From an uncultured Planctomycetia bacterium (lineage in GTDB: Bacteria; Omnitrophota; Gorgyraeia; 1-14-0-20-64-10), in contig CAYJVR010000004.1 of NCBI GenBank assembly GCA_964373715.1, forward strand, positions 89,255-153,254: a stretch of DNA of 64,000 nt. Direction: 5' to 3'. Position numbers and translations under genes: made by a program. Below, one piece after another: positions 1,275 through 46,167 of the stretch (the stretch's first letter is position 1; the number at the start of each line of letters is the position of its first letter). The notes under the pieces were generated by a model. It was not told the DNA's origin. It saw only the letters and a program-made list of their open reading frames with translations, and ran no database searches.

Positions 1275-2935
1275 GGGAGATTTTCCTTCTTCTCGAGAAC
1301 CTCGATCCGTTTCTTCAGAGACGTATTTTCGGCTTTGAGTTCTTTGACCGCCTGTAAAAGAACAGCGGTAAATTTCCCGTAATCCAGCCCTTTATACCCG
1401 TCGCTCGTATAAACAAGTTCCGGGAAAACCTTTTCGACATCCTGAGCAATCACGCCAATCTCTTTTCTTTCCGGCAATACAGGGTATCCTTTTGCCTTGT
1501 AGAGATCATTCCAATCGTAAGAAACACCCTCAATGGCGTCTATTTTCTGCAGAACACCGGTTAAAGGCTCAATGTGGCTCTTTAAACGAACATCCGACGG
1601 CGTAATAGTTCCCGACGCAAGGATGTTGCCTATGACATGCAGCTTCTCTGTCGGGCTGTCTGTCCCAAGCCCGACAAACTCGCCCGGTGTAATCGTGAAA
1701 GGAAATGACCAGCTGACACCGTTGTTGTAGGCAATCTGGAACTTATTCACAACGCCGGCCGCTTGTTTATGCGAAATCTGCCAGAACTTGTCGGTCGCCT
1801 CATCCGACACAAGGTTAAGGGCGGAAAAATTGTCCCCGTCCCCGGTCCCCCAAATGGATTGATATGCCGCGTCACCGTTTCGGTAGACCGTCAAAGCGGA
1901 GCCAGGATTCAAAAGCCCGATACCGACGTTTCCGTTACCCGCAATAGCCAATCGAACCGTCTGAAGGGTCGGCACAACGTCTCCGGTTCCACTCACGCTG
2001 CCGATGCCGGTATACATAAAGATGCCGGAGGCCCCAGTGCCTGTCGAAATACCGGAGGAGAGGACCAGGTTTCCCCCGTCCCTGTTCGTCGCCGCCACGG
2101 TGGTCCCGCCGGCCCTGACCGTCAGGTTGTTGCCTCCGGTGTTCGGGGCGGTATGCCGCTCCATCTGTATCATCCGGGTGTTATTACCGTTGATTCCAAT
2201 CGTAGCGGTGGCGTTGTATGCCCCTATCGCCAGCATGGGGACATCCAAAGAAATATTGGTTGAGTCTTGAAGGACAAACACCGGCTGCCATCCGCCGCCG
2301 GCGTTAAAATCGCGGTAGAGCACATGGAAATTATGCGATGCCGTCGCGCTCCTGTTATGGCCGATCTGCCAAATCTGGTCGTCCGCCTCAGATCCGACAA
2401 CTCCGAAATCGGCGTCGAGATTGATGGCGCAGTAGTTATCCGGATCCCCCACTCCGGTAGACCGGAGCCGCATGTAGAGGGCGTCATAAGGGCGCACGAT
2501 ATCCACGCCGGACAAAGGGGTGGCTGTCCCTATGCCGAAGTTCAAAGCCGGTCCCCCGGGTCCAGGAACATCGTTGCCCGGCATAAAGACCACCTGGCCT
2601 ATCCCATCATCCGGTCCGCGGACACGCAGGAGGTCTTCCGGCGTCCCAGGGGCGGTCAAAATGGAGCGGATGTCCAACAAACCGGCCGGAGTGCGGGTAC
2701 CCATCCCCACGCGCCCCTCCACGGCTAAACCGTTAGCCGGAACAGGCTGAGAATTGTAGCCGGCGCCGATGCCGGCGCTGTTGACGTAAAGAGGGTCCGG
2801 AAGGTCATTGCCGGTAGCCGGATAATAGGTAACGAACTCGAGGGTTTCAGCCCAGACAAGCCCGGCCATCAAACCGACTAAAAGGAACAGCGCAATTCCG
2901 TGTGTCCGCCATGTTTTGATGATCATTTGTGTCAC
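1271..2935 (-). CDS. secreted Gly-rich fibre-like protein with C-terminal intramolecular chaperone (peptidase S74, tail-fibre/endosialidase chaperone) domain
   Basis: Signal peptide (IALFLLVGLMAGLVWA). N-terminal motif FVTYYPATGNDLPDPLYV is shared with the three tandem paralogs. Central region has repetitive G-x-G-T motifs (GIGTATP, GMGTRTP, GLGTDSP). C-terminus PSDVRLKSHIEPLTGVLQKIDAIEGVSYDWND...GVIAQDVEKVFPELVYTSDGYKGLDYGKFTAVLLQAVKELKAENTSLKKRIEVLE matches the S74 signature SDxRLKxNI...Y.Y..-...IGFIAQEV...P. Its stop overlaps the stop of 786..1274 in a convergent TTAA. Confidence 0.7.
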   Translation of the reverse strand: MTQMIIKTWRTHGIALFLLVGLMAGLVWAETLEFVTYYPATGNDLPDPLYVNSAGIGAGYNSQPVPANGLAVEGRVGMGTRTPAGLLDIRSILTAPGTPEDLLRVRGPDDGIGQVVFMPGNDVPGPGGPALNFGIGTATPLSGVDIVRPYDALYMRLRSTGVGDPDNYCAINLDADFGVVGSEADDQIWQIGHNRSATASHNFHVLYRDFNAGGGWQPVFVLQDSTNISLDVPMLAIGAYNATATIGINGNNTRMIQMERHTAPNTGGNNLTVRAGGTTVAATNRDGGNLVLSSGISTGTGASGIFMYTGIGSVSGTGDVVPTLQTVRLAIAGNGNVGIGLLNPGSALTVYRNGDAAYQSIWGTGDGDNFSALNLVSDEATDKFWQISHKQAAGVVNKFQIAYNNGVSWSFPFTITPGEFVGLGTDSPTEKLHVIGNILASGTITPSDVRLKSHIEPLTGVLQKIDAIEGVSYDWNDLYKAKGYPVLPERKEIGVIAQDVEKVFPELVYTSDGYKGLDYGKFTAVLLQAVKELKAENTSLKKRIEVLEKKENLP

Positions 2936-7621: not shown

Positions 7622-9373
7622 TTACTTCCTCAGCTCTTCCAGTTCCGACCGGAGAGCGTTTATCTCCACCTGCTGCGCCTTCACGGCGGCCAAGAGGGCG
7701 GCCAAAGAATCGCCCTGCACAATTCCCTGCCCGGAGTCGTCCACCATCTCAGCAGGCGCTTCTTCGGTGAGGATCCCCAGCCTGTGCGCTTTCGCGTGAT
7801 CTCCGCTCTTTAAACGAAAATGGTAAAGAGAAACCGACAAGAGCTTCTCCAGAATGGCCTGCTCTTCCGGGAGGGTCAACGGAACCAGATCTGTTTTTAC
7901 CTGGACCGTCGAGTTATCGAACGTCGCTCCGACTCCCTCAGCCCGTGCGTCTCCGTTGATTTTGACGACCTCCGCGGCTCCAATCGCAGCCGTCACCCCA
8001 AAAAACGCCCCGTCCTGATAAAAAGCCCCCTGGATAGGCGACGCGGCACTCCTGTTGCTCGACCTAATATTTACCGTGAGGGTAGACGGATAAGGATTGC
8101 CCGCGGCGTCCCGGACCGCCGAGTACCCGAAACCAACCCGCCCCCCCTCGAGTTCAATGTAAGCAGGAACACCTCCCTCTGAAGAGGTACCTGCTCTTCC
8201 CAAGCGCAGTATGGGACCGGTCGTAAACATCTGATAAACTGGGTTCGCGGCAGGAGAGGAGTTGACGGTGACCGTCGTCCCGTAAAAAGACGGCGGTCCG
8301 GTTGCGCTATCCACAAGATGCATCATCGCCCTTGGGGCGATTGTCTTCACACCCACGGTTCCGTTAAATATAGCGTTGGCCGCTGCGACCCTCAAGCGGG
8401 CGTTGGTGGTAGTCGTGGTGTTAATTGCCGCGTACCCATCGTTCCGCATCCGGAACCGGACGGTGGCAGGCGTTCCGCCGCCGGTGGTATCCATCATAAC
8501 CTGGAATTCGCCGGCTGCCAAAACAGCATTCCCCTCATTGAGCAGGTTAAACGGCCGGCCGCCTGCTGAGGGGGTAAACCGGATCACCCCTCCGGTGAGG
8601 AAGCCAACGCCGCCATTCTCAGACGGGCCCACATCCAGCTGGGCCAGAGGGTCCGCGAAACCACCGTTAGCGGCTCCTTCAAAAAATATTCCCACGCTTC
8701 CATTGTTCAGAACCCGTATCTTTTCACCCGCTGTACCCGTGCCACCGGGGGGAATACGGGTGCTCAACTGTAATTTTCCGGAACTGTTCTCCAGCGTGAA
8801 GCGAGTATGGTCCGGGTTCGCTCCGTTGAGGGCGCCGGCCCAAAAAACATTGCCCCCCGCATTGAGTCCATCCTTGGGGCCGATCTCCAGAGGAGCCAGC
8901 GGATCCCTGACGCCGGTATCCTCCGAAAAAATCCCCACGCGGCCGGTGTTTAAAACCCGCATCCGTTCGCTCGACCCAGCCGCGGTCTGCACGATAAGGC
9001 GCAGCTGCATCGTATTGTTCTCGAAATAGCGCCACCGGTTGGCCCCTGCCCCGAGTAAACGCACCGCACCGCCCAAGTTGACCGCGTCCCGCGGACCGGC
9101 ATCCAGCGGCACGGCCGGAGCGGCCACATTGACCCCCACCGACCCCGCGACGATCGCGGAATCGGCGGGAGGATCAATCGCCGCGTACGGAGCACCGACG
9201 GTCAAACGCCTGACATGGAACGGATCCGGGATGTTCCCGTTGGTCGGGTAATACTCGATCATATCCACTTGGGTCTGCTCGGCCCACGCGGCCGGACAAA
9301 TCAGGCTGAGCAAGGCCCCCAGGGTAAAAAGGAAACGTCCTCCTTTTCTTCCGTACGAGAACTTTTTCATCAC
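7622..9373 (-). CDS. secreted fibre-like protein with C-terminal S74 intramolecular chaperone domain (tandem paralog 3 of 3)
   Basis: Signal peptide LFTLGALLSLICPAAWA. N-terminal motif MIEYYPTNGNIPDPFHVRRLTVG is conserved in all paralogs. The central region is Gly-rich and repetitive. C-terminus VKTDLVPLTLPEEQAILEKLLSVSLYHFRLKSGDHAKAHRLGILTEEAPAEMVDDSGQGIVQGDSLAALLAAVKAQQVEINALRSELEELRK is an S74-like chaperone domain. The start overlaps the upstream gene by 4 nt. Confidence 0.75.
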   Translation of the reverse strand: MMKKFSYGRKGGRFLFTLGALLSLICPAAWAEQTQVDMIEYYPTNGNIPDPFHVRRLTVGAPYAAIDPPADSAIVAGSVGVNVAAPAVPLDAGPRDAVNLGGAVRLLGAGANRWRYFENNTMQLRLIVQTAAGSSERMRVLNTGRVGIFSEDTGVRDPLAPLEIGPKDGLNAGGNVFWAGALNGANPDHTRFTLENSSGKLQLSTRIPPGGTGTAGEKIRVLNNGSVGIFFEGAANGGFADPLAQLDVGPSENGGVGFLTGGVIRFTPSAGGRPFNLLNEGNAVLAAGEFQVMMDTTGGGTPATVRFRMRNDGYAAINTTTTTNARLRVAAANAIFNGTVGVKTIAPRAMMHLVDSATGPPSFYGTTVTVNSSPAANPVYQMFTTGPILRLGRAGTSSEGGVPAYIELEGGRVGFGYSAVRDAAGNPYPSTLTVNIRSSNRSAASPIQGAFYQDGAFFGVTAAIGAAEVVKINGDARAEGVGATFDNSTVQVKTDLVPLTLPEEQAILEKLLSVSLYHFRLKSGDHAKAHRLGILTEEAPAEMVDDSGQGIVQGDSLAALLAAVKAQQVEINALRSELEELRK

Positions 9374-11133
9374 GGGTCTAAACCCCCAAGAGTTCCGTGA
9401 GCGGCGGATTGAGCGGTTTTCTCTTTCCTTATCCGCCCGATCCTGGCCCTTAAAGATTCGATCTCTTCTTGCTGGGCCTTGACCACCGCGATCAGAGCGG
9501 CCATATATTCCGGCAGGTCCAGCGCCTCATGGTGGTCGTCCACAATATCGTCCATGGCCTCCTCGACCAGTATCCCCACGCGATGCGATTTAGACGTTTC
9601 GACAGCCTCTTTCCTCTGGTAATTGTACAGGGGCACATCCATCAGCTGAGAGGCAAGCCCCCTCTCCTCCAGTGAAGTCAGACGGGCCAAATCTGTTTTA
9701 TAGGCGACCGAACTGCCCCATGTCCAGCCGCCGGTCGCCAGAGCGTCCCCGAAAACCTTCAAAGCATAACCGGCCGTGTAGGTGAACCCGCCGATCAAGC
9801 ACCGGTCGGTATGGGCCTGCCCTATCACCGTGAACATGTTGTTCCCGATAGGCATTCCCCTGATCCCAGTCTGTCCGTCGGCCCCGGATGGCGGCACTGT
9901 TATATTCCCCAGTCCACCCCTGCAGACAATACGCAGCTTCAAGACGTTTGCTGTTGGTGGGCCTACGGCGTCATACTCCCCGATGACCAGATCCTTATCG
10001 CTCACGGCTGAAGTCTGGTAATATAACCCGTAAGCAACAGTGGTGGTAGCGGGTTCGACTATAAGACCTCCGCCCGAGGGGGCCAAGGAGGAAGCCAGGA
10101 TACGGACGCCCGGCATCGTATCGGTCGTCGGAATACCGTTCAGCTTGAGATCCCCCTCTATAACGGTATTTCCATCGACCCGCAGCCCCCCCGCGGGAGG
10201 TGTTGGTAGCGGACTGCCGATCCCAAAACCTCCGGCATTCGTGAGCACCACTTTAGCGCTTGAAGAGCCGGCGCCGTCGTCCGTCCAAAACTGCAAATCA
10301 TTGCCCACACTGCGGATTTGCGCGTAGCGGGGATTCGCCGTGGTTCCGGCCAAATGAATCCTGGCCCCGGTTGCCGCAGATTCCGCGCCGATGTGCAGGA
10401 CTTCGGTGGGATTGACCACACCGGTACCATTGACGAAAATCCCGACACTGCCCGCCAACACACCCGCCCCGTCATCGACAACCGTCCGCAAAACCTCCCT
10501 GTCCGGATTGACGCCGTCCTGCATCATGAGCCTGAACCGGCCGGCATTGTTCTCCAGATGGAAATACCCGTTCGTGTCGGCCCCGACAAACATCAGCTGG
10601 CCGCCCAGGTCGGTGGGATCCCTGGGCCCGAGGTGAAGCGGCTCCTGCGGATCAAGCGCAAGACCGTCGGAGTGGGGATAAATCCCGAGAAAACCGGTTT
10701 CCATTATCCGCATTCTTTCCGTAGCGACCGCCGCTCCGGTATCATCGGTGTTGGTGAAGAACCGTATTCTTCCCGTGTCGTTTTCCAGATAGAACCAGCG
10801 GTTGGCCCCCGCTCCGAGCAGGCGCAGAGCGCCGCCCGAGTTGACCGCGTCCCGGGGCCCGATGTCCACAGAGATAATAGGAGCGGCTATAGACGGGTTA
10901 TTTGTTCTCACTCCCAGCGGGCCGGCGATGATAAGGGAATCGGCCGGCGGGGTGGTGGCCAGATAAGGGGTCCCGACTGTTTGACTCTGGACGCGGAACG
11001 GGTCCGGCAGGCTTCCTGACGGCGGATAGTAGGTTGTCACCTCCATCGTTTCGACGGCCCAGACCAGGGTGGCTGTGACCAGCACTCCCGCGAGAGTTCC
11101 AAAAACAGGAGTCTGCCAGAATTTATTGTTCAT
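9370..11133 (-). CDS. secreted fibre-like protein with C-terminal S74 intramolecular chaperone domain (tandem paralog 2 of 3)
   Basis: Signal peptide TLAGVLVTATLVWA. N-terminal motif TTYYPPSGSLPDPFRVQSQTVG. C-terminus YKTDLARLTSLEERGLASQLMDVPLYNYQRKEAVETSKSHRVGILVEEAMDDIVDDHHEALDLPEYMAALIAVVKAQQEEIESLRARI. A 4-nt overlap on both sides indicates translational coupling. Confidence 0.75.
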   Translation of the reverse strand: MNNKFWQTPVFGTLAGVLVTATLVWAVETMEVTTYYPPSGSLPDPFRVQSQTVGTPYLATTPPADSLIIAGPLGVRTNNPSIAAPIISVDIGPRDAVNSGGALRLLGAGANRWFYLENDTGRIRFFTNTDDTGAAVATERMRIMETGFLGIYPHSDGLALDPQEPLHLGPRDPTDLGGQLMFVGADTNGYFHLENNAGRFRLMMQDGVNPDREVLRTVVDDGAGVLAGSVGIFVNGTGVVNPTEVLHIGAESAATGARIHLAGTTANPRYAQIRSVGNDLQFWTDDGAGSSSAKVVLTNAGGFGIGSPLPTPPAGGLRVDGNTVIEGDLKLNGIPTTDTMPGVRILASSLAPSGGGLIVEPATTTVAYGLYYQTSAVSDKDLVIGEYDAVGPPTANVLKLRIVCRGGLGNITVPPSGADGQTGIRGMPIGNNMFTVIGQAHTDRCLIGGFTYTAGYALKVFGDALATGGWTWGSSVAYKTDLARLTSLEERGLASQLMDVPLYNYQRKEAVETSKSHRVGILVEEAMDDIVDDHHEALDLPEYMAALIAVVKAQQEEIESLRARIGRIRKEKTAQSAAHGTLGGLDP

Positions 11134-12914
11134 GGCCGCCCCTGTGCCCGCTCTTTCTCCAGATGATCAAGCTCCGACTTCAAAGACTCGATCTGAGCCT
11201 TCTGCGCTTTGAGCGCGGCCAACAACACGGACATGTAATCACTGCCGGCGATCGCACGCCCGCTGTCATCCACAATCTCTTTCGGCGCCTCTTCCGCCAG
11301 GATCCCGATGTGCCGGATTTTCGAATCGCCCGCCCCATTTTTCAAACGGTAGCGGTAAAGGACCTGTCCCGCCAATTTGTCCAGCAAATTTTTTTCATCG
11401 GTTGGACTCAGCCGGACCAGATCGGTCTTCCCGATCACAGAACTGCCTTCCGATTTGTTGCCGCTGGAATAAACCGCCCCCTGCACATGCATTTTATAAG
11501 GGAATACCAAAACCCCGCCCGCGCCGAACACCGCGGTATCTCCAAACATGGCGGCGTCGTTGCCGGCTAATCCGACGTCAAAAGGATAGGCCGGCGTCGT
11601 TATGTTGACGCCGACATACGCAGTCCCACCGACAGGATGGATCACAATGCGGCTGGCGGCATTGCCGCTGAGGGCCGGAGACTCGTCCCCGATCCGAAAA
11701 TCGGTGACCCCGCCGCCGACATCCACCGCCTGAAAAGCATAGGGCACCTTGGTCGCCGGCGGATTAATCGGGCCCTCCATTAAAAGGCCGGTAGTTCCTT
11801 TTATATGGAGTCCCGGGCTCGCAGCCGGGGCGCTTAACCCGATTACCATTTTTCCGGTACCCGCGACACCGACTTGAAGATTTCCGCCGGCCACATGAAG
11901 TTTCGTGCTCGCGCTTGGAACAGGAGCGGGGTTCCCGAAAGAGACATTTCCGGTGTTGGTGATCCGCATTTTCACGCTTTCAATTCCAACGCCATCCTGG
12001 GTCACAACCTGCAGTGTCTGGGCGTTGTTTTCGAAATAGAGGTACCTGTTTGTTCCGGCGCCTCTTAAAAGAAACTGTCCCCCGAGGTTCGTGGCATCGC
12101 GGGGCCCCAAGTGCAGAGCGGCCAGAGGATCCGTCACCCCGGTGTTGTTGTAGAAGATCCCCATTTGCCCCGTGGGTAAAATCCGGATTGCCTCATTCGC
12201 GCCGTTTTGCATCCTCAAACGGAATTGCGACGATTGATTCTCGATCAAAAAATAGGGGTGGTCCGGGTTGGCTCCGTTGACCGCGCCGGCCCAGAGGACC
12301 TCCGCGCCGTCGTTCGCGTTATCCACAGGGCCGACCTCCAGCATAGAGGTCGCGGCGGGGTCCACAACTTTATTCGTGCTCGGATAGATGCTCATTCTCC
12401 CCGTCTGGAGAATACGGACCCTATCCTCCGGGGCACCGACAGCGTTTTCAGACCAGATCCGGAACGCCCCGGTATTATTTTCAAACTCCCAAAACCGGTT
12501 GGCTCCCGCCCCCCGCAAGCGGATCAGGCCGCCTAGATTTCCAGCCGGGTTTCGGGCCACTTCAAGAGGAAACGTCGGGTTTGGCTCCCGGATCCCCAAC
12601 CGGCCGGCGATGATTAAAGAGTCGGCGGGGGTGGTGTTATTGGTCAGATAAAGGGTGGCCCCTTGATCAGCCCCCACCGTCATCCGGCGGACATGGAAGG
12701 GGTCCGTTGCCGTTACCGGCGGGAATGCGTAATACTCGACCATATCCACCTGCTCCGCCCAGGAGACCGTGGCCAGCATGCCGCCGGCGATCAGTACTCC
12801 GAATACTCCGGATCTTTTCTTCAGCATTTCGCGCACCCATCCGTGATTTGGCCTTAAGCTCTTTCTTTCGGCTTTTCCATACTGCTCAAAAAGCGGCCAA
12901 AAGAAACCGTTCAT
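11130..12914 (-). CDS. secreted fibre-like protein with C-terminal S74 intramolecular chaperone domain (tandem paralog 1 of 3); the true start may be the internal Met at ~12824
   Basis: MLKKRSGVFGVLIAGGMLATVSWA is a signal peptide if translation starts ~30 codons in. N-terminal motif MVEYYAFPPVTATDPFHVRRMTVG. C-terminus GKTDLVRLSPTDEKNLLDKLAGQVLYRYRLKNGAGDSKIRHIGILAEEAPKEIVDDSGRAIAGSDYMSVLLAALKAQKAQIESLKSELDHLEKE. Confidence 0.7.
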   Translation of the reverse strand: MNGFFWPLFEQYGKAERKSLRPNHGWVREMLKKRSGVFGVLIAGGMLATVSWAEQVDMVEYYAFPPVTATDPFHVRRMTVGADQGATLYLTNNTTPADSLIIAGRLGIREPNPTFPLEVARNPAGNLGGLIRLRGAGANRFWEFENNTGAFRIWSENAVGAPEDRVRILQTGRMSIYPSTNKVVDPAATSMLEVGPVDNANDGAEVLWAGAVNGANPDHPYFLIENQSSQFRLRMQNGANEAIRILPTGQMGIFYNNTGVTDPLAALHLGPRDATNLGGQFLLRGAGTNRYLYFENNAQTLQVVTQDGVGIESVKMRITNTGNVSFGNPAPVPSASTKLHVAGGNLQVGVAGTGKMVIGLSAPAASPGLHIKGTTGLLMEGPINPPATKVPYAFQAVDVGGGVTDFRIGDESPALSGNAASRIVIHPVGGTAYVGVNITTPAYPFDVGLAGNDAAMFGDTAVFGAGGVLVFPYKMHVQGAVYSSGNKSEGSSVIGKTDLVRLSPTDEKNLLDKLAGQVLYRYRLKNGAGDSKIRHIGILAEEAPKEIVDDSGRAIAGSDYMSVLLAALKAQKAQIESLKSELDHLEKERAQGRP

Positions 12915-33953: not shown

Positions 33954-34029
33954 TGGAGCGGGTGAAGGGACTTGAACCCTCGACAGCCTCGTTGGCAACG
34001 AGGCGCTCTACCAACTGAGCTACACCCGC
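33954..34029 (-). tRNA. tRNA-Gly (anticodon GCC), CCA encoded
   Basis: Reverse complement GCGGGTGTAGCTCAGTTGGTAGAGCGCCTCGTTGCCAACGAGGCTGTCGAGGGTTCAAGTCCCTTCACCCGCTCCA. Cloverleaf checked by hand; anticodon loop TTGCCAA. Confidence 0.85.
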
Positions 34030-34080
34030 AACAAACTCCTCAAAATCTAAAACAGCACTCTTGGATCTACAACCGGCTCT

Positions 34081-34162
34081 TGGGCACGGAGGGAGTTGAA
34101 CCCCCACCCCTTTCGGGACAGGATCCTAAATCCTGCGCGTCTTCCAGTTCCGCCACGTGCCC
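34081..34162 (-). tRNA. tRNA-Leu (anticodon TAG), long variable arm
   Basis: Reverse complement GGGCACGTGGCGGAACTGGAAGACGCGCAGGATTTAGGATCCTGTCCCGAAAGGGGTGGGGGTTCAACTCCCTCCGTGCCCA. Anticodon stem CAGGA/TCCTG, loop TTTAGGA, discriminator A. Confidence 0.8.
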
Positions 34163-34202
34163 GAAAAAGGAAGCCCATTCAAAATCCGGCTCTGAATTTT
34201 TA

Positions 34203-34275
34203 TGGGCCGTGTAGGAATCGAACCTACAACCTTGACATTAAGAGTGTCCTGCTCTGCCGATTGAGCTAACGGCCC
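34203..34275 (-). tRNA. tRNA-Lys (anticodon CTT)
   Basis: Reverse complement GGGCCGTTAGCTCAATCGGCAGAGCAGGACACTCTTAATGTCAAGGTTGTAGGTTCGATTCCTACACGGCCCA. Anticodon loop CTCTTAA; one mismatch at the top of the anticodon stem. Confidence 0.7.
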
Positions 34276-34410
34276 GAAACCTTCAAGGAATTTGGCCTAG
34301 GCCGGCCAAAAGACTATTTTAGCCTACAGACAGACCCATATAAACGGTTTTAAGGCCCTGTCCCCGTACCTCCTGAACTCGACTTCACAGCAGGCATAAC
34401 CGTGAAAAAA

Positions 34411-34484
34411 CGCGCCCGCCGAGAGTCGAACTCGGAACCTCCAGGTTCGAAGCCTGTCACTCTATCCAGTTGAGCTACGGGCGC
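34411..34484 (-). tRNA. tRNA-Arg (anticodon TCG)
   Basis: Reverse complement GCGCCCGTAGCTCAACTGGATAGAGTGACAGGCTTCGAACCTGGAGGTTCCGAGTTCGACTCTCGGCGGGCGCG. Anticodon loop CTTCGAA. Confidence 0.8.
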
Positions 34485-34560
34485 AAAAAGACACTCTCGA
34501 CGAAGGTAGGCTCTCCAAGATAACAGATCGCTGGGGGGAAATCAAACCGAAGAAACGGTT

Positions 34561-35756: not shown

Positions 35757-36420
35757 CGGACTCTCCTTCTGTAACCGGTTTTTTCGCCCTCAAAACGATG
35801 GGAAGGGTGACCAGGTTCACCAGGAATTTTTGATACTCTTCAACAACATAAAGCGCATTGCGGGGGTTGGACCACCATCTCCCCGGCTCAAACATATCAT
35901 AGGAGGTCGGGTAAGAGAACACCTCTGTTCCGTCAAATACCTCCCTGAATATGAAGCGGGCCCGCCGGGAAGAGACCGGCGACGTGACGATGACAATCTG
36001 CCGGGGCAAATCAGGCGTAAAATACCTCTTTACCTTCAGCGCCTCCTCGATCGTTCCATTCGCTGCTCCAGGCAAAACCTGGATCTGCGACTCCGGAACC
36101 CCAGACGCAATGAGGATCCGTACCGACAGAGGAGGCTGCTTCGGGTCAAAAAGCCCGAGACCCAACAGTTCTCTGACCATAATGGTGTCGGTCGGCTCCG
36201 GAACAACCAGGACTTTTCCCGCGCGGGCTTGCTTGTAAAGATCTCGGGCGGCCAATGACCTGCGGACCGGATCCCCCGACAGGACGACGGCCACATCGGC
36301 CTGGACGAATGAATCTTTGACAACCAAGAACTCCCCCGCGTGGAGGAAAAACTCTATCCCTAAGACGATGAGGATCACCAGCACGACCAGCAGTTTTCCT
36401 ATATGCTTCTTCATCATCAC
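35749..36420 (-). CDS. YdcF/ElyC/SanA (DUF218) family protein
   Basis: An N-terminal TM helix followed by ADVAVVLSGD...VIVTSPVSSRRARFIFRE, which matches DUF218 motifs. Confidence 0.65.
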   Translation of the reverse strand: MMMKKHIGKLLVVLVILIVLGIEFFLHAGEFLVVKDSFVQADVAVVLSGDPVRRSLAARDLYKQARAGKVLVVPEPTDTIMVRELLGLGLFDPKQPPLSVRILIASGVPESQIQVLPGAANGTIEEALKVKRYFTPDLPRQIVIVTSPVSSRRARFIFREVFDGTEVFSYPTSYDMFEPGRWWSNPRNALYVVEEYQKFLVNLVTLPIVLRAKKPVTEGESDG

Positions 36421-36426
36421 ACCTCT

Positions 36427-37239
36427 CTAGTCCTGCGCAAGCCGCCCCAAACGACCCTGCATGCGCGCCCGACGAAAGATCCAGACGAAAAACAAAATCC
36501 CCAGAAGGAAATAAAAGAGAGTTAAGCCAAAAATCGCAGGCCACATGGATAGAGAAAGGGACTGCCCTCTTAAAGAGGCGCGCAGACCCTCAAAAATATA
36601 GGTGGTCGGCAGACACCGGGAGACTGCCTGCGCCCAAGCCGGCAAAACATCCACCGGATAAAAAACACAGCTGAACGGCTGTATGAGAAACGGTATCCCC
36701 CAGATCAGAGCCTCCGCCGCGTACCCGAAACGCAGCAGCAGCCCGCCGGTAAAAAGACCGATCGCCCAACCGAAAAAAAGCAGCAAGGCGGCCAACGGGA
36801 GAAAAATCCATCCGATCCGGATGATCTCAAAAGCGTAAAGGAAATAAGCGATGCAGGATAAAACGCAGGTCACCACCGTCACTTTGATCAGCCCGTAGAG
36901 GAAAACGGCGGTGATCCACTCCCAAAGCCTCAACGGGCTCAACAGGATGTTCGTCACGTTGCGCGTCCAAACCTCCTCCATTAAGGAAAGGGTCAACGCC
37001 TGCTGGCTTCGGTAATGGATGTCCCATGAGATCATCGCCCCAACGAGAAAGACTATAAATTGGATGATGGGGCCGTTGGCCGCTTTCTGGATATACAAGG
37101 CCACAAACCCCCAGATCAGCAGATCCATCACCGGCCAGAAAAAGACCTCAAAAAGCCGGACCAGGCTGCGCCGGTGAAGGATCAGATAGCGGAAAAAGAT
37201 CGCCCGGATCCGTCTCAGAGAAGAGGCTTCAGGAAACAT
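36427..37239 (-). CDS. ABC-2 type transporter permease
   Basis: Six predicted TM helices; immediately downstream of and overlapping the ATPase gene. Confidence 0.7.
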   Translation of the reverse strand: MFPEASSLRRIRAIFFRYLILHRRSLVRLFEVFFWPVMDLLIWGFVALYIQKAANGPIIQFIVFLVGAMISWDIHYRSQQALTLSLMEEVWTRNVTNILLSPLRLWEWITAVFLYGLIKVTVVTCVLSCIAYFLYAFEIIRIGWIFLPLAALLLFFGWAIGLFTGGLLLRFGYAAEALIWGIPFLIQPFSCVFYPVDVLPAWAQAVSRCLPTTYIFEGLRASLRGQSLSLSMWPAIFGLTLFYFLLGILFFVWIFRRARMQGRLGRLAQD

Positions 37240-37981
37240 GAAACAGCTCCCCGCTGGTGGCCACCCGGATGAACAATTCCTCCAGAGAGCGGCTCTGCAG
37301 GCGCGTTAACACTTCCCGAGTTGTCCCTTCGACAAGCAGCTTTCCCTGGTGAAGGAAGAGTATCCGGTCGCAGAAGCTTTCCACCTCCTGCATATTGTGG
37401 GAAGTGTAGAGGACCGTCATCTGCCTCTCGCGGCGAATTTCCTGCAAAAGCTCCCTCACCTTAGAGGCCATGTATGGATCAAGCGACCGGGTTGGCTCAT
37501 CGAGAATCAGCAGTTCCGGGCTGTTTAAGAGGGCTTTCACCAGCTTCAAGCGCATCTGTTCACCCGCGGAAAGGGTCCCGACCAACTGGCGGCGCAGCTT
37601 CACCAAGCCGAACTGTTCCATAAGTTTTTCCAGGAACCGGCCGGCGTCGCGCACCCCGTAGAGACCTATAAAAACATTCAGGCATTCGGTCACGCTGAGG
37701 TTCGAGGGAAGATCCACATCTGCAGAAGCGAAACTTAAGCGAGGCAGAACCTTGAGCCTGTGCCGAATCGGGCAAAATCCAAGAACTTCCACCGCGCCCG
37801 AGGTCGGCTGCAGCAGACCCAAAACAGCATGTAGCGTGGTTGTTTTCCCGGCCCCGTTCGGCCCCAGCATGCCGACCACCTCTCCTGAACGAACCCGGAA
37901 GCTTAAATGGTCCACCGCCGGCCGCTCGGAACCGGCATAGCGGTGGACAAGCTCCCGCACCATGATCGGGTCTTCATTCAC
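37229..37981 (-). CDS. ABC transporter ATP-binding protein
   Basis: Walker A GPNGAGKTT, signature LSAGEQMRL, Walker B LLILDEPT. Confidence 0.85.
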   Translation of the reverse strand: MNEDPIMVRELVHRYAGSERPAVDHLSFRVRSGEVVGMLGPNGAGKTTTLHAVLGLLQPTSGAVEVLGFCPIRHRLKVLPRLSFASADVDLPSNLSVTECLNVFIGLYGVRDAGRFLEKLMEQFGLVKLRRQLVGTLSAGEQMRLKLVKALLNSPELLILDEPTRSLDPYMASKVRELLQEIRRERQMTVLYTSHNMQEVESFCDRILFLHQGKLLVEGTTREVLTRLQSRSLEELFIRVATSGELFHVS

Positions 37982-38020
37982 GCCGTTTTCCCCATCGCTC
38001 CAGGCAGGATACCATATCTC

Positions 38021-40088: not shown

Positions 40089-40979
40089 ATGGATCTCCAA
40101 CAGCTCCGCTACGCGGTCGCGCTTTCCCGGGAACTCCATTTCCGTAAAGCGTCGGAAAAGATGAACGTCACCCAGCCGACCCTCAGCCAGGGAATCAAGA
40201 AGCTCGAGGGGGAGCTGGGTTCCCTTCTGTTTGAGCGTTCACCCCGCGGGGTAAAACTCACGCCTGCGGGCAAAAAATTCATCCCCCGGGCAATCTCCAT
40301 TCTCGAGGAGGTTGGCGAAAGCATCCGGGAACTGCAGGAAGCCTCCGGAGAAGCGGCCGGCGCGGTCCGGGTCGGCTCGATACCGACGATCTGCCCTTAC
40401 CTGATGCCCCAGGTGATCACGGAGCTTAGAAAAACAGCCCCGCGGCTCACGATCGAACTCCGGGAAGAGACCACTTCCCTGCTGGTCGAACACCTGAAGG
40501 CGGGGGAGTTGGACATGGGGGTTCTGGCCCTGCCGATCACGGAAAAGGGGATATCCAGCCTTTCGATCCGCAGCGAACCATTCTACCTGGCCGTCTCGAA
40601 ACGGCACCGGCTGGCGGGCGCCAGGCGGATCAGCCCAAAGGAGGTGGCCCGGGAGAGGGTCTTGATCCTTCAGGAGGGGCATTGCTTCCGGAACCAGTCG
40701 CTCGAATACTGCAAGCTTTCCCCGAAAGACCCCCATGTGATCTTCCAGGGGGGAAGCCTTACTTCCGTGCTGAAACTCGCGGCCTCAGGCGAAGGGGTGA
40801 CCTTCGTCCCGAAGATGGCTCTGGACCCGAAAGGAAACCCTGGCCTGGCGTACATCCCGTTCACGCCGCCGGAACCGGAGAGAGAGATCGGCGTCATCTG
40901 GCGGGTGACCTCCTCGCTGAACCTCTCCCAAAAAGCAGTTCTGGAAACCGTCGAAAAGGTTCTTGAACAATTGTATTAA
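40089..40979 (+). CDS. LysR-family transcriptional regulator, OxyR-like (divergent from ahpC-ahpD)
   Basis: HTH MDLQQLRYAVALSRELHFRKASEKMNVTQPTLSQGIKKLE with a LysR substrate-binding domain; the divergent arrangement with ahpCD matches the typical oxyR position. Confidence 0.75.
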   Translation: MDLQQLRYAVALSRELHFRKASEKMNVTQPTLSQGIKKLEGELGSLLFERSPRGVKLTPAGKKFIPRAISILEEVGESIRELQEASGEAAGAVRVGSIPTICPYLMPQVITELRKTAPRLTIELREETTSLLVEHLKAGELDMGVLALPITEKGISSLSIRSEPFYLAVSKRHRLAGARRISPKEVARERVLILQEGHCFRNQSLEYCKLSPKDPHVIFQGGSLTSVLKLAASGEGVTFVPKMALDPKGNPGLAYIPFTPPEPEREIGVIWRVTSSLNLSQKAVLETVEKVLEQLY

Positions 40980-41136
40980 TAGAAACTAAATCTATATGAG
41001 CTCTTGAATTTTCGCGCCCCATCAGGCATAGTTGGTTCAGAAGCGACATCAAAACAACAAAGGGGGCGCCTAGAGAAAAAACCTGACCGTTATCCCAAAA
41101 ACCGATGGAATTCCATTTCAAAAACCGTTCTGAAAA

Positions 41137-41183
41137 GAGCCCGGGGCTGCTGGAAACAACCCCGGGTTGTTTTTTGCCGGCGG
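41137..41183 (+). terminator. rho-independent terminator (orphan, ~160 nt downstream of the LysR gene)
   Basis: agCCCGGGGctgctggaaacaaCCCCGGGttgttttttg: a 7-bp GC stem followed by a TTGTTTTTT tract. Confidence 0.55.
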
Positions 41184-41193
41184 AAAAACAAGG

Positions 41194-41223
41194 GCCGCAG
41201 CCTTTTCGGCTGCGGCCCTTGAC
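41194..41223 (-). terminator. rho-independent terminator downstream of the intron-containing tRNA (minus strand); a possible bidirectional hairpin
   Basis: The perfect 11-bp stem GGGCCGCAGCC-ttttc-GGCTGCGGCCC lies directly 3' of the tRNA on the minus strand, followed there by CTTGTTTTTCC. Confidence 0.5.
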
Positions 41224-41225
41224 GT

Positions 41226-41525
41226 TGGTCGCGGGGCCTGGATTTGAACCAGGGACCTTCAGGTTATGCGTACCACTTCAGCTTTCGCTGCTTCATGCTC
41301 CAGCATGAATTTGTGGTCTGGACTATCCCATCACCCCGTACCTAGTGGTACGGGGTGCCCGCCGTCTAGTCTCTACACCTTCCTTGCGCTCAAAACCACA
41401 AGGCTTGGTTCGGGATCACCAGTAAAGGCTTCCCCGACTTTGACGGGTTTTAACTCAACCGTTGCCGGCTGAGTGGCCCAGATTTTATTTGAGCCTGACG
41501 AGCTACCAGACTGCTCCACCCCGCA
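41226..41525 (-). tRNA. tRNA-Met/Ile2 (anticodon CAT) interrupted by a group I intron; exons ~41492..41525 and 41226..41268
   Basis: 5' exon (rc) TGCGGGGTGGAGCAGTCTGGTAGCTCGTCAGGCT carries the acceptor, D-arm and 5' anticodon stem. 3' exon CATAACCTGAAGGTCCCTGGTTCAAATCCAGGCCCCGCGACCA carries the anticodon, 3' anticodon stem CCTGA, T-arm and acceptor. Joined, the anticodon loop is CTCATAA. The anticodon stem is TCAGG/CCTGA, so it is not an initiator tRNA. Confidence 0.7.
41269..41491 (-). ncRNA. group I self-splicing intron (Azoarcus-like, IC3-type) in the anticodon loop of tRNA(CAT)
   Basis: The intron RNA contains GGAAGGUGUAGAGACUAGACGGCGGGCACC (R element / P7 5' strand, near-identical to the Azoarcus ribozyme GAAGGUGUAGAGACUAGACGGCACCCACC) and GGGAUAGUCCAGACC (S element / P7 3' strand). 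The 5' exon ends in U, a GGCC internal guide sequence 11 nt into the intron pairs with exon GGCU, and the terminal intron nucleotide is G. Confidence 0.7.
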
Positions 41526-41590
41526 ATAGATTTTCAAAGATACTGGAAGCTATTATAGCCCCTTTAAGAGACAAGGGCAAACCTTCTTAT

Positions 41591-43838
<2,248 letters not shown>

Positions 43839-44129
43839 CCACCACCCGATCCACTTCCTGCCCAGCTTTGATGAAGATCAGCGTTGGAATGTTGAGGATG
43901 CCGAACTGCGCCGCCAGATCCGGATGTTCGTCCACGTTCACCTTGCCTACGGTCACTTTGCCCTTATAAGTGCCGGCCAGCTCATCGAGAACCGGAGCGA
44001 TCGCGCGGCACGGAGCGCACCAGCTCGCCCAAAAATCAACAACCACCGGCGTCTTGGACTGAAGAACGTGGGTTTGGAAATTCGCCTGCGTCACCGTCAA
44101 AGTCCCGTCACTCATGACTCTCTCTCCTT

Positions 44130-45356
44130 CTATTGATGATGGCGTTTTGGATGCCGCGGTTCAGTATAACACAACAGAATAAACCCGCTTAAGGCGAAAA
44201 TCCCAGCGACAGCAGCCAGCACAACCCCGCGGCCTCCCTGTTCGGCCAGCCATCCAGCGAGGAGCATCGAGCCGATCAACGACAGGTTCATGACGACCCC
44301 CATGCTGCTGAAAATCCTCCCGTGGAGGCGGGTCGAATGGCTTTCATGGACCAGGATATTGGTCACGATCCCCACAGGGGCGATCCAGAATCCTAAAAAT
44401 GCGGTGGCGACCGAAGCGGCCACTCCCGATTTGAGCCACAGAACGCCCGCAATGAAGAGCCAGAGGGCACCGCCGCTGCCCATAAAGGAGAGGCCCAGGA
44501 CCATCCTTCTGGGCGACCGGGTTCCCCACCGCCCATAAACCAGCGAACCGCCCAGCATACCGACCCCTAACCAAAGGCTTAAAAACCCGAGGTCTTTCGT
44601 GACCGAGCCCAGCACCTGCTGAACCATGACCGTTCCGATCACAAAGCTGGCTCCGGCCCCCATCGTCAGCAGGGACAGGAGCCCGGCCGCCCGCCGGGTC
44701 GCCTTGTGTCGCCACAGCTCCCGCATCCCTTCCAAAACCTCCTTGAACACCAAGCGGACCGAATGGGAGACCTTCTCCTTCTGATGGCGCCGGCGCGCGA
44801 GCGGCATGATAAAAAGGGCGGAAACCAAATAACTGGCGCCGTTGACCCAGCAGCTTCGATTTACACCGATCCACTCCACCATCAGCGCCCCCACGAGAAG
44901 GATCAACGCGGAACCGATCATGCCGGAACTGGTAAAAAGGGCGTTTGCCTGCGCCAACTCTTTCGGTTTCACAACGTCCGGGATCATCGCCAGCCGGGCC
45001 GGGACAAAGAAGGTCGCGACGGAAAAGAGGAAAAAGACACCGACATATAAAAAAATACCGCCGTGATACACGGCCAGCCAGGGAAACGTGAGGATCGCCG
45101 CGGAACGGATGAGGTCGCAAGCGACCATCGTCTGCTTCCTGTCCCACCTGTCTACGTAAGCGCCGGCAAGCGGGTTCACTAAAAGCCCCGGCAAAGAGAT
45201 CGCGGCCATCACTGTGGCCAGCGTCATTGTCGAACCGGAAGCGCGGGTCGTTACCAAAGCCACAAGGACCAGCTGGCTGAGCCGGTCGCCGAACTGCGAA
45301 CACAGCTGTCCCAGCCAGAGCAGCCGGAAATTTCGATCCTTCAGGAGAGAAAACAA
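44130..45356 (-). CDS. MFS transporter
   Basis: Twelve predicted TM helices; MFS-like GDRLSQLVLV and DRWDRK motifs. Confidence 0.7.
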   Translation of the reverse strand: MFSLLKDRNFRLLWLGQLCSQFGDRLSQLVLVALVTTRASGSTMTLATVMAAISLPGLLVNPLAGAYVDRWDRKQTMVACDLIRSAAILTFPWLAVYHGGIFLYVGVFFLFSVATFFVPARLAMIPDVVKPKELAQANALFTSSGMIGSALILLVGALMVEWIGVNRSCWVNGASYLVSALFIMPLARRRHQKEKVSHSVRLVFKEVLEGMRELWRHKATRRAAGLLSLLTMGAGASFVIGTVMVQQVLGSVTKDLGFLSLWLGVGMLGGSLVYGRWGTRSPRRMVLGLSFMGSGGALWLFIAGVLWLKSGVAASVATAFLGFWIAPVGIVTNILVHESHSTRLHGRIFSSMGVVMNLSLIGSMLLAGWLAEQGGRGVVLAAVAGIFALSGFILLCYTEPRHPKRHHQ

Positions 45357-45381
45357 TCAGGCCTCCCTTTTCGTCGGATCT

Positions 45382-46167
45382 TTAAACAGAGGCGGGCCGG
45401 TACATCGTCAGGACAAAACCGGTCAAAAGAAGCCAAACCCACCCGAGGATTTCCAGGGCGACACCGAGGGCAACCTTATTCCAGCGGTCTCGGGCCATCC
45501 GTCCGAGCCACAGGCAGACAAAGGCGATCGACAACCAAAAAGCAGTGAACAAAACGCCGAGCATTCCCCTGTCGAAAAGACCGACCATCAGATAGATCAC
45601 GGCCACAAACACGGGGATGACCGTCCCCCCCTCGACCGTTTCTAAACGGAGATTCGAAATGGCTCTGCCGAAAACAGATTTCTGCTCCTTCACATACTTG
45701 AGGACCGGCACATAATCAAAATCGTTCAGGTTCCCGGATTCGCGCCGTTTGCGCCGCCGCCATTCCCTCCGATCAAAAATCTCCTCGAAGATGAACTGCC
45801 TCTTCTTCAGAAAAAAGTAGAGGTCCCAATCCTCTTGATAGATGTCGTCATCCAGATGGAATTTATCCGCGGCGATTGTGCACAGGGTATACAGGTCCGT
45901 GTGGTCTAAAACGGCAAAAACAAGCGGGCTTTTCTCAGAGACAAACTCGACGTAGACCTGGCGGACATCCTCTTCGGTGACAAACGGCCATTGGGTTTGA
46001 AAAGAGACTTTCCTCTCCTCTTCTCCGCGGCCGGTCCGTTCCAGGCACAGGTTCTCCCGGAAAACCCACTTAAGGGAAGAAGGCAACCCCCTCTGGCCCA
46101 CCAAGCCTCGCCAGTGAGCCATCACCTTATTAAAAGGGGGCCGCTTACCCTTGCTCATTGGAGGCAT
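45382..46167 (-). CDS. hypothetical membrane protein (soluble N-terminal domain + 3 C-terminal TM helices)
   Basis: ORF with C-terminal hydrophobic helices; no recognised motifs. Confidence 0.4.
   Translation of the reverse strand: MPPMSKGKRPPFNKVMAHWRGLVGQRGLPSSLKWVFRENLCLERTGRGEEERKVSFQTQWPFVTEEDVRQVYVEFVSEKSPLVFAVLDHTDLYTLCTIAADKFHLDDDIYQEDWDLYFFLKKRQFIFEEIFDRREWRRRKRRESGNLNDFDYVPVLKYVKEQKSVFGRAISNLRLETVEGGTVIPVFVAVIYLMVGLFDRGMLGVLFTAFWLSIAFVCLWLGRMARDRWNKVALGVALEILGWVWLLLTGFVLTMYRPASV

Follow-up and report, generated by a model that had tools for sequence, protein, structure and literature searches.

Group I introns in the tRNA-fMet genes of cyanobacteria were reportedly described by Biniszkiewicz et al. 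in 1994 (Synechocystis, Scytonema and Dermocarpa), and the intron of the Azoarcus tRNA-Ile gene interrupts its host at position 36/37. A 2026 survey of tRNA group I introns counted 333 of them in 18 phyla, named position 33/34 of tRNA-fMet as one of the well-characterised intron sites and catalogued 'fMet (CAT) 33/34, IC3' introns in several phyla, including Cyanobacteriota, Omnitrophota, Nitrospirota, Desulfobacterota and Bacteroidota (PMC13011429, Table S5). Here, we report the analysis of a 64,000-nt stretch of DNA from an uncultured bacterium (the window; contig CAYJVR010000004.1, positions 89,255 to 153,254), in which an initiator-type tRNA(CAU) gene with a promoter of its own very probably carries an endonuclease-free, 223-nt intron of the IC3 kind between U33 and C34 that would be removed by group I splicing. 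The intron is real and intact and belongs to a class catalogued in many phyla; it is ordinary except that default tRNA finders miss its host gene. Its main value is therefore practical, in the annotation of an overlooked gene. It adds one more, sparsely sampled lineage to the broad distribution of tRNA-fMet 33/34 IC3 introns and offers a compact ribozyme candidate, and it leaves knowledge of bacterial tRNA introns unchanged.

A tRNA gene split in its anticodon loop

Run with its intron option, ARAGORN returned an interrupted tRNA whose limits are exactly 41525..41226 and whose intron is 223 nt long; the joined exons were called as a 77-nt tRNA-Met(CAT) (Table 1). In this intron mode, the program put the intron at 37/38 and labelled the gene tRNA-Leu(CAA), and the gene was missed in the window both by ARAGORN at default settings and by the Rfam tRNA model. 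In an automatic annotation, the genome would thus seem to have no initiator tRNA, or would be credited with a spurious tRNA-Leu.

The intron site is 33/34, between U33 and C34 in the anticodon loop. Three intron registers yield an identical spliced product from the window sequence; a U before the intron and a G at the intron end, in 12 of 12 family members, are obtained in the U33|C34 register only. The 3′ exon supplies CAU, A37, A38, the 3′ strand of the anticodon stem, the variable loop, the T arm, the 3′ strand of the acceptor stem, A73 and CCA, so that the anticodon loop reads CUCAUAA once spliced. The first-pass annotation, made from the sequence alone, had proposed a group I intron in the anticodon loop of a tRNA(CAU) gene, with tRNA halves about 223 nt apart and this same loop in the joined exons. 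The Rfam match described below and the split tRNA returned by the intron-allowing search, a check that the annotation had itself suggested, bear this out; its coordinates and its junction at 41492|41268 are right to the base, with the gene encoded on the minus strand.

Table 1 Features of the tRNA(CAU) gene, its intron and its surroundings (window coordinates)
Feature	Position	Strand	Description
tRNA(CAU) gene	41525-41226	-	77 nt without intron; ARAGORN intron option
5′ exon	41525-41492	-	34 nt, ends with U33; acceptor 5′ strand, D arm, anticodon-stem 5′ strand, C32
Group I intron (IC3-like)	41491-41269	-	223 nt, without ORF; terminal G at 41269
3′ exon	41268-41226	-	43 nt; CAU anticodon to encoded CCA
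P1	41495-41490 with 41480-41475	-	GGCU (exon) and CA (intron) on guide UGGGCC; U33·G at splice site
P2	41453..41474	-	Hairpin, GCAA (GNRA) tetraloop; minimum-free-energy fold
P3	41447-41442 with 41363-41358	-	Encloses P4, P5 and P6
P4	41437-41432 with 41415-41410	-	Alignment and fold
P5	41429-41418	-	Alignment and fold
P6	41408-41378	-	Alignment and fold
Catalytic-core 18-mer	41378-41361	-	GTGTAGAGACTAGACGGC; J6/7-P7-P3
P7 (G-binding helix)	41373-41367 with 41325-41320	-	G(A)GACUA with UAGUCC; pseudoknot with P3; encloses P8 and J8/7
P8	41355-41334	-	Double changes in 4/4 tested pairs
J8/7	41333-41326	-	UGAUGGGA; rare U at 41330
P9 domain	41270..41318	-	Closing helix GACCAC/GUGGU.C (41318-41313 with 41276-41270)
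P9a	41309-41292	-	Hairpin; fold and alignment
P9b	41290-41279	-	Hairpin, GAAA loop; loop invariant in alignment A1
Promoter-like site	41552..41580	-	TTGCCC-17 nt-TATAAT; 10/12 consensus matches; about 26 nt 5′ of tRNA position 1
Intrinsic terminator of tRNA transcript	41184..41221	-	Hairpin 41221-41189 (14 pairs, 11 G-C), then TTTTT
Separate hairpin	41140..41176	+	Followed by TTGTTTTTTG (T-run); outside the tRNA unit; from sequence
LysR-family gene	40089-40979	+	Convergent

Structure of the intron

The Rfam model of group I introns (RF00028, Intron_gpI) matched 41501..41298 on the minus strand with 58.0 bits (E = 4e-12), above the gathering score of 50 bits and over the full model (1–253); this search had likewise been put forward in the first-pass annotation, and the P1 guide with its U-G pair, the P7 strands and the terminal G are all present as described there. 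To this we added a hand-drawn structure of 69 pairs, tRNA stems and the P3/P7 pseudoknot included, which was tested on 12 aligned sequences, the window's among them. In this alignment 95.5% of cells are paired, versus 31–40% with the partners slid, 32 pairs have changed on both sides, and the covariation score was reached by none of 500 shuffles. P1 pairs in 98.6% of cells, its splice-site U·G is invariant (12/12) and its loop in the window intron is 9 nt. Compensatory changes occur in all eight tested pairs of P2, double changes in three pairs of P3 and two of P4, and the P3–P6 helices are paired in 97–100% of cells; P7 is invariant in 12/12.

The minimum-free-energy fold alone recovers P1, P2, P3, P4, P5, P6, P8 and the P9 domain, and its z-score of −7.56 against shuffles points to structure far beyond chance. 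All core helices are intact, and the window sequence conforms at the invariant columns of the 12-sequence alignment. The architecture is compact and IC3-like, with P2 present, no P5abc and GNRA loops in L2 (GCAA) and L9b (GAAA). Two ORFs run across the intron on the plus strand (41266-41472 and 41462-41896); these antisense ORFs were treated as spurious.

Splicing of this RNA would start from a P1 in which the guide UGGGCC is paired to G30, G31, C32 and U33 and to the two bases that open the intron, with a U·G wobble at the splice site. A free guanosine bound by P7 would attack after U33, the terminal G of the intron would next take the same P7 pocket, and the freed 3′-OH of U33 would attack before C34, joining the exons into the mature anticodon loop. 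A search for a P10 helix joining the 3′ exon to the P1 loop gave nothing convincing, which makes it likely that the anticodon and acceptor stems keep the two exon halves in register.

The spliced tRNA is of the initiator type

Judged from its sequence, the spliced tRNA is an initiator type, not an elongator tRNA-Met or tRNA-Ile2, and it would presumably be formylated. Its identity to E. coli metY, a gene flanked by argG and rimP-nusA, is 89.5%, and to initiator types, metY included, it is 86–92%, versus 62–73% to tRNAs with introns at 36/37. Used as a query, it gave a median of four matches per E. coli genome, which is the number of initiator genes in that species. A11:U24, the initiator hallmark of the D stem, occurs in the window tRNA and throughout the alignment (12/12). 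The GCGGGG acceptor stem comprises G2-C71, C3-G70 and G4-C69, with G2–G7 conserved in 12/12.

Two other positions are less typical. An unpaired 1:72 is a hallmark of initiators, and 11 members of the 12-sequence alignment have a mismatch there; the window tRNA, with a U1·G72 wobble, is the one member in which the position can pair. Going by work on E. coli, so weak a pair may still allow formylation. U at position 1 recurs in locus L097 and in the Nitrospirota and Desulfobacterota rows of the published survey, whose fMet rows also include U1-A72 and U1xU72 (PMC13011429, Table S5). The anticodon stem has A29-U41, G30-C40 and G31-C39 in place of the three G-C pairs (29-31:39-41) that mark initiators. 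Since 8 of the 12 initiator-type relatives also have A29-U41, and with it the state of two G-C pairs, this hallmark is not discriminating in these lineages. It was this A29-U41 pair that misled the earlier, non-initiator reading of the gene as elongator Met or lysidine-modified Ile, which is not supported by the likeness to metY, by A11:U24, by the acceptor stem or by the grouping with relatives that are mismatched at 1:72.

Relation to cyanobacterial and Azoarcus-type introns

By its homology to introns labelled IC3, the window intron is assigned to that subgroup. Its pre-tRNA is 70–76% identical to the fMet class and 58–60% identical to the 36/37 class; identity to the published fMet 33/34 IC3 introns of Cyanobacteriota, Nitrospirota, Desulfobacterota and Omnitrophota is 74–76%, and no relative above about 76% was found among the matches listed and the published rows. 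The nearest loci among the matches listed are from Planctomycetia and Omnitrophota, with the published Nitrospirota, Desulfobacterota and cyanobacterial introns equally close. The same family, at 70–76% identity, takes in Planctomycetia, Omnitrophota and Patescibacteria loci (L062, L105, L088, L097, L045, L036, L118, L090 and others).

The cyanobacterial tRNA-fMet introns have the tRNA type, the 33/34 site and the helix set in common with that of the window, start with CAA/CGA...GGGC and end with ...GCAGCGAAAGCUGNAGUGGUANG, as it does, and their pre-tRNAs are 74–76% identical to it overall and about 80% over aligned columns. They differ in having a longer P1 or P2 region (244–267 nt) or a 150-codon endonuclease ORF (654–655 nt), compared with 223 nt here, and their rows have C1xA72 or C1xC72 with G29-C41, whereas the window tRNA has U1·G72 with A29-U41; the host of the window intron, moreover, is not evidently cyanobacterial.

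Azoarcus-type introns, from Rhodocyclaceae and other betaproteobacterial loci (for example, L089, L023 and L081), are also IC3, small and without P5abc; their core 18-mer is identical to the window's, and the GAAA loop of P9 is common to both. In contrast to the window intron, however, they occupy the 36/37 site, after the anticodon, and their host tRNA has a GGGCC or GGCCC acceptor (Ile2 or elongator-like). Among the matches listed, the 36/37 class comprises 25 tRNA(CAU) loci, most of them betaproteobacterial, and 25 of 25 have this acceptor stem and not that of initiators. The designation 'Azoarcus-type' given in the first-pass annotation thus holds for the IC3 subgroup and the core, and fails for the site and for overall identity (58–60% versus about 75%). 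Its description of the core as nearly identical to that of Azoarcus stands in so far as the 18-mer is exact in Rhodocyclaceae introns of the Azoarcus kind, which served as proxies for this comparison.

At least 120 genome loci, among them Rhodocyclaceae tRNA(CAU) introns, have the core 18-mer without a single change, and the viral scan found it in at least 120 viral stretches, mostly in tRNA-Leu(UAA). No initiator-type exon occurs among the viral matches listed, which therefore give no sign of a phage origin. A search for the core string in literature full text found no paper. Given so many genome and viral matches, and 333 introns in 18 phyla (PMC13011429), to call such introns sporadic and a useful marker, as had been done, was an overstatement.

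Genomic locus and probable loss of the endonuclease gene

The promoter-like site is the only one of its kind in 40800-41900, with the ftsB stop codon (41591) on one side of it and the tRNA on the other. The terminator had been described as strong and bidirectional; it is strong on the tRNA strand, and no T-run follows the 41221-41189 hairpin on the opposite strand. The separate plus-strand hairpin probably terminates the LysR-family gene.

The gene order eno-ftsB-tRNA is common to the window, L062 and L045, and eno adjoins the tRNA in L105 and L115 too. Because Planctomycetia and Omnitrophota relatives, although distant, have the intron-bearing gene at this shared locus, the arrangement suggests long vertical persistence of the intron after loss of its endonuclease gene. 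Three neighbouring proteins that we checked are singletons at 90% identity; the lineage is sparsely sampled.

The 223-nt intron holds no sense-strand ORF and no visible remnant of a homing endonuclease gene. At the same site, the introns of L115 and L022 contain a 147-codon I-Ssp6803I-like ORF, which lies in the P1 loop and starts with the third base of the intron; that of L115 matches PDB 2OST (E = 4.5e-49), which is I-Ssp6803I, a PD-(D/E)XK homing endonuclease borne by tRNA-fMet introns. In L045 the first 11 nt of the endonuclease ORF are left as a scar. The window intron is probably a streamlined copy without the ORF, and probably immobile; its lineage is very probably that of the classical cyanobacterial tRNA-fMet intron, and some relatives still have the I-Ssp6803I-type gene in the P1 loop.

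Alternative explanations and a variant in J8/7

Were the gene an elongator tRNA-Met or a lysidine-modified tRNA-Ile2 with an intron of the Azoarcus tRNA-Ile type, its two consecutive G-C pairs in the anticodon stem (29-41 being A-U), a 1:72 position able to form a U·G wobble and a core 18-mer that Rhodocyclaceae tRNA(CAU) introns share base for base would all be accounted for. We nevertheless regard this as unlikely: A29-U41 is the common state in the initiator-type relatives, A11:U24 and the G2-C71, C3-G70 and G4-C69 pairs are present, the site is 33/34 and not 36/37, and both the pre-tRNA and the spliced tRNA are closer to the fMet class than to the 36/37 class, whose tRNAs have a GGGCC or GGCCC acceptor. 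It is far less probable again, to the point of being nearly negligible, that the tRNA halves are split and brought together by trans-joining, or by the action of a protein endonuclease with a ligase, with a resemblance to group I introns and nothing more; the first-pass annotation had raised this as a formal alternative, and no specific evidence favours it. A single promoter and a single terminator enclose the two halves, which are on the same strand, the intervening RNA scores above the Rfam cut-off with a structure backed by covariation, and the junction follows group I rules, not those of a bulge-helix-bulge motif. An initiator tRNA gene interrupted by a group I intron remains the reading that we favour.

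That intron has one unusual base in its core. At position 41330, in J8/7, the window has U, where 117 of 119 related introns among the matches listed have A and two have U, and by comparison with these relatives the rare base could lower ribozyme activity. Together with the atypical 1:72 and 29:41 pairs and the absence of a homing endonuclease gene, it would fit an intron that is decaying within a pseudogene or a superfluous copy of the tRNA gene, poorly spliced in a cell that uses another initiator gene. This, too, seems improbable to us, as every core helix is intact and the invariant columns are kept, the fold is very stable (z = −7.56), the predicted promoter and the terminator are strong, and the eno-ftsB-tRNA locus holds an intron-containing gene in distant relatives. 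Moreover, the J8/7 U recurs: 86 metagenome stretches carried the variant in a metagenome scan, in many introns that are otherwise intact, and a pairing-aware parse found it almost confined to introns with G-C at the fifth P4 position, the pair that the window intron has. No near-identical copy of the locus appeared in that scan, the best match being 70% over 245 nt. A more ambitious proposal, which we think has little chance of being right, is that the intron-containing gene is the sole initiator tRNA of the cell, that U1·G72, A29-U41 and the combination of J8/7 U with the P4 G-C represent lineage-specific tuning of initiator identity and splicing rate, and that the intron senses GTP and thereby throttles the supply of initiator; if the gene were indeed the sole one, translation initiation would hinge on a guanosine-dependent ribozyme step. 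In a more modest form of this proposal, the association between the J8/7 U and the G-C pair in P4 may represent a covarying tertiary contact, hitherto undescribed, in IC3 ribozymes.

Detection and identity of a split tRNA gene

The minus strand of the window carries two tRNA halves that stand 223 nt apart. Neither ARAGORN in its default mode nor the Rfam tRNA model, run on the 64-kb window, calls this split gene (41525-41226); both report four other tRNAs, which form an intron-less cluster. With introns allowed, ARAGORN recovers the interrupted tRNA with its ends at exactly 41525 and 41226 and an intron of 223 nt; this mode forces the archaeal/eukaryal 37/38 position, so that the gene is miscalled tRNA-Leu(CAA), and using the group I junction to join the exons instead yields tRNA-Met(CAT) of 77 nt. 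The Rfam group I model aligns over its full length to 41501..41298 (minus strand) with 58.0 bits (E 4e-12; gathering score, 50). The ARAGORN intron-mode call and the Rfam score bear out the first-pass annotation in its main point, a tRNA(CAU) gene interrupted by a group I intron at 41226-41525, but that reading was wrong about the identity of the tRNA and the nearest family of the intron. The locus is also an annotation trap, being either missed by default tools or mislabelled as tRNA-Leu(CAA). Two antisense open reading frames (ORFs) on the plus strand might be annotated as hypothetical proteins.

The tRNA had been assigned as elongator Met or lysidine-modified Ile, the initiator having been ruled out for want of three G-C pairs in the anticodon stem. 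Only two of the three are indeed present, A29-U41 (41497/41260) replacing the first, but the remaining molecule disagrees with that exclusion. The predicted spliced tRNA shares 89.5% identity over 76 nt with the Escherichia coli tRNA gene between argG and rimP-nusA, the initiator gene metY, and as a query it finds a median of four matching places per E. coli genome, the number of initiator genes there. Its identity is 86-92% to metY and the closest initiator types (genome loci L062, L088, L105 and L045) and only 62-73% to the tRNAs that carry introns at 36/37. It has A11:U24, the acceptor pairs G2-C71, C3-G70 and G4-C69, and the T loop UUCAAAU. In A1, our alignment of the window feature with initiator-type relatives (12 sequences), A11:U24 is invariant, 1:72 is mismatched in 11 sequences and A29-U41 occurs in 8, so the last is no non-initiator mark in these lineages. 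Overall likeness and A11:U24 thus mark the predicted spliced tRNA as initiator type. The U1.G72 wobble of the window (41525/41229) is the sole pairable 1:72 in A1; other U1 variants among published fMet introns are U1-A72 in Nitrospirota and U1xU72 in Desulfobacterota (PMC13011429).

Predicted splice sites and ribozyme architecture

Both the intron and the 3' exon start with CA, which allows three registers with an identical spliced product. A single register combines an exon-final U with an intron-final G (...GGCU33 / CAAAUAAAAUCUGGGCC ... GUGGUACG / C34AUAACC, slashes marking the junctions). It is kept in every homologue, including two whose introns begin CG and are free of the ambiguity, and this places the intron at 41491-41269, between tRNA positions 33 and 34. 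Window position 41492 - i is numbered as intron base i. Folded by minimum free energy without constraints, the intron together with the final six bases of the exon (41497-41492) reproduces P1, P2, P3, P4, P5, P6, P8 and the entire P9 domain at -102.1 kcal/mol, versus -69.4 +/- 4.3 for shuffles (z = -7.56). No convincing P10 helix was seen in the window pre-tRNA; in tRNA introns the anticodon stem is known to aid exon alignment, as Zaug et al. reportedly described in 1993, in a paper that PMC3984707 cites.

We scored a hand-written intron structure together with the tRNA stems on A1, aligned with MAFFT. Across 69 pairs, 95.5% of cells are paired, versus 31-40% with partners slid by 1-3 columns; both sides change in 32 pairs, and none of 500 shuffles reaches the covariation score. 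Compensatory changes fall in P2 (8/8 pairs), P3, P4, P8 and P9b, and P7, the U.G pair and the P9b GAAA loop are invariant.

Coordinates of features in the window and in related loci
Feature	Locus	Position	Strand	Detail
5' half	window	41525-41492	-	UGCGGGG-UG-GAGC-AGUCUGGUA-GCUC-G-UCAGG-CU
3' half	window	41268-41226	-	CAUAA-CCUGA-AGGUC-CCUGG-UUCAAAU-CCAGG-CCCCGCG-A-CCA
P1	window	41495-41490 with 41480-41475	-	exon GGCU + intron CA with UGGGCC; splice-site U.G
P2	window	41474-41453	-	9 pairs, loop GCAA
P3	window	41447-41442 with 41363-41358	-	CCCGUC/GGCGGG
P4	window	41437-41432 with 41415-41410	-	
P5	window	41429-41418	-	
P6	window	41408-41378	-	
P7	window	41373-41367 with 41325-41320	-	G(A)GACUA/UAGUCC
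P8	window	41355-41334	-	9 pairs
J8/7	window	41333-41326	-	UGAUGGGA
P9 closing helix	window	41318-41313 with 41276-41270	-	
P9a	window	41309-41292	-	hairpin
P9b	window	41290-41279	-	hairpin, loop GAAA
Core 18-mer	window	41378-41361	-	GTGTAGAGACTAGACGGC
purN-like formyltransferase gene	window	43161-43838	-	upstream of tRNA
eno	window	41860-43158	-	upstream of tRNA
ftsB/DivIC	window	41591-41881	-	upstream of tRNA
Promoter-like site	window	41580-41552	-	TTGCCC-17-TATAAT
Hairpin	window	41221-41184	-	14 pairs, then TTTTT
Second hairpin + T-run	window	41140-41176	+	probably serves LysR gene
LysR-family regulator gene	window	40089-40979	+	convergent, downstream of tRNA
Antisense ORFs	window	41266-41472, 41462-41896	+	
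tRNA cluster	window	33954-34485	-	Gly-GCC, Leu-UAG, Lys-CUU, Arg-UCG
Three tandem ORFs	window	7622-12914	-	583, 587, 594 aa
Peptidase_S74 ORF	window	1271-2935	-	554 aa, C-terminal domain
eno-ftsB beside tRNA	window	41591-43158	-	
eno-ftsB beside tRNA	L062	7272-7999		Planctomycetia
eno-ftsB beside tRNA	L045	2895-4558		Omnitrophota
tRNA-fMet intron with ORF	L115	1092-1535	+	Omnitrophota; I-Ssp6803I-like PD-(D/E)XK, 147 codons
tRNA-fMet intron with ORF	L022	2553-3265	+	I-Ssp6803I-like PD-(D/E)XK, 147 codons
ORF-less relative	L045	2481-2797	-	

Relatives and family assignment

Scanned against one genome per species, the core 18-mer finds at least 120 loci in many phyla; host tRNAs were assigned by intron-aware calls followed by correction with the U/G rule. 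Among the matches listed, the hosts are Leu(UAA), with the intron at 34/35, Arg, with it at 36/37, and tRNA(CAU), which falls into two classes. The 36/37 class, mostly betaproteobacteria among these matches (Polynucleobacter, Methylotenera, Limnohabitans, Rhodocyclaceae), has the acceptor stem GGGCC/GGCCC and is the counterpart of the Azoarcus tRNA-Ile case. Within the 33/34 class, the matches listed divide into tRNAs of the GGGCC type, chiefly from Chloroflexota and Bacillota, and tRNAs of the CGCGGGG type; the latter are from Planctomycetia (L062, L105), Omnitrophota (L045, L088, L097, L115), Patescibacteria (L036, L118, L090, L070, L099, L087, L116), a bin labelled Nitrospira (L109) and L022. 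By sequence likeness the window pre-tRNA, 76% identical to L062, L097 and L088 versus 58-60% to the 36/37 class, belongs to the CGCGGGG group. At least 120 IMG/VR viral contigs (L210-L329) carry the same 18-nt core; among the matches listed most have it in tRNA-Leu(UAA), and none of the listed contigs has an initiator-type 5' exon.

In L115 and L022 the same intron measures 630 and 639 nt, and an ORF begins at intron base 3. The L115 ORF matches PDB 2OST (E 4.5e-49), the endonuclease I-Ssp6803I from the tRNA-fMet intron of Synechocystis. L045 lacks the ORF, but its P1 loop is enlarged and retains the first 11 nt (ATGGACACAAA, the opening codons), apparently a scar left when the ORF was lost. 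No ORF is present in the 223-nt intron of the window, which is therefore a streamlined representative of the classical family of tRNA-fMet introns. The earlier 'Azoarcus-type' label stands for the subgroup and core sequence, not for the nearest family, which is classical tRNA-fMet rather than the 36/37 class.

A 2026 survey lists 333 tRNA group I introns from 4,934 complete genomes in 18 phyla, with tRNA-fMet 33/34, tRNA-Leu 34/35 and tRNA-Arg 36/37 as common, well-characterised sites; its Table S5 places 'fMet (CAT) 33/34, IC3' introns in Cyanobacteriota, Bacteroidota, Desulfobacterota, Nitrospirota and Omnitrophota, and two cyanobacterial fMet introns hold PD-(D/E)XK endonuclease genes (PMC13011429). 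The window pre-tRNA is 73-76% identical to the fMet entries compared (Cyanobacteriota, Desulfobacterota, Nitrospirota, Omnitrophota) and about 80% identical over aligned columns to three cyanobacterial entries (PMC13011429). The window intron is best read as an additional member of the tRNA-fMet 33/34 IC3 family from a sparsely sampled bacterium, and nothing in it lies outside known biology.

A J8/7 variant

Base 41330 in J8/7 is U here and A in 117 of 119 related introns among the matches listed. The second U among the genome loci listed is in L119 (Reyranella), in another tRNA, also with a G-C fifth P4 pair, and a metagenome scan added 86 further stretches. When all collected loci were parsed with pairing taken into account and sequence relatedness ignored, the fifth P4 pair among distinct sequences with J8/7 A (n=113) was U-A in 74, G-C in 28, U.G in 8, C-G in 2 and A-U in 1; with J8/7 U (n=57) it was G-C in 55, U.G in 2 and never U-A. 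The window has G59-C78 (41433/41414). The variant therefore seems to be tolerated in a context-dependent way and not to signal decay, and the two positions may form a covarying tertiary contact, relatedness being ignored in these counts.

Genomic context

The locus is ordinary chromosomal DNA, and at 90% identity three proteins encoded nearby are singletons. The eno-ftsB-tRNA(intron) order recurs in L062 and L045, which points to long residence of the intron at an orthologous locus; eno also adjoins the intron-bearing tRNA in L105 and L115. What had been described as a bidirectional terminator resolves into two terminators placed tail to tail, since the 14-pair hairpin has no T-run on the plus strand and the LysR gene probably has a hairpin with T-run of its own.

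Elsewhere in the window, a Pfam scan of two of the three tandem ORFs (7622-9373 and 9370-11133) gave no match at E <= 1e-5. The ORF with a Peptidase_S74 domain (endosialidase chaperone, tail-fibre type), at the left window end in a region with a GC content of 0.50 versus about 0.57 elsewhere, possibly has a phage or surface-fibre origin. AT skew is about +0.22 in two 2-kb bins (36001-38000 and 44001-46000) and about 0 elsewhere; these bins lie over genes for membrane proteins on the minus strand (ABC-2 permease, MFS transporter), and the skew in both is probably a codon-composition effect.
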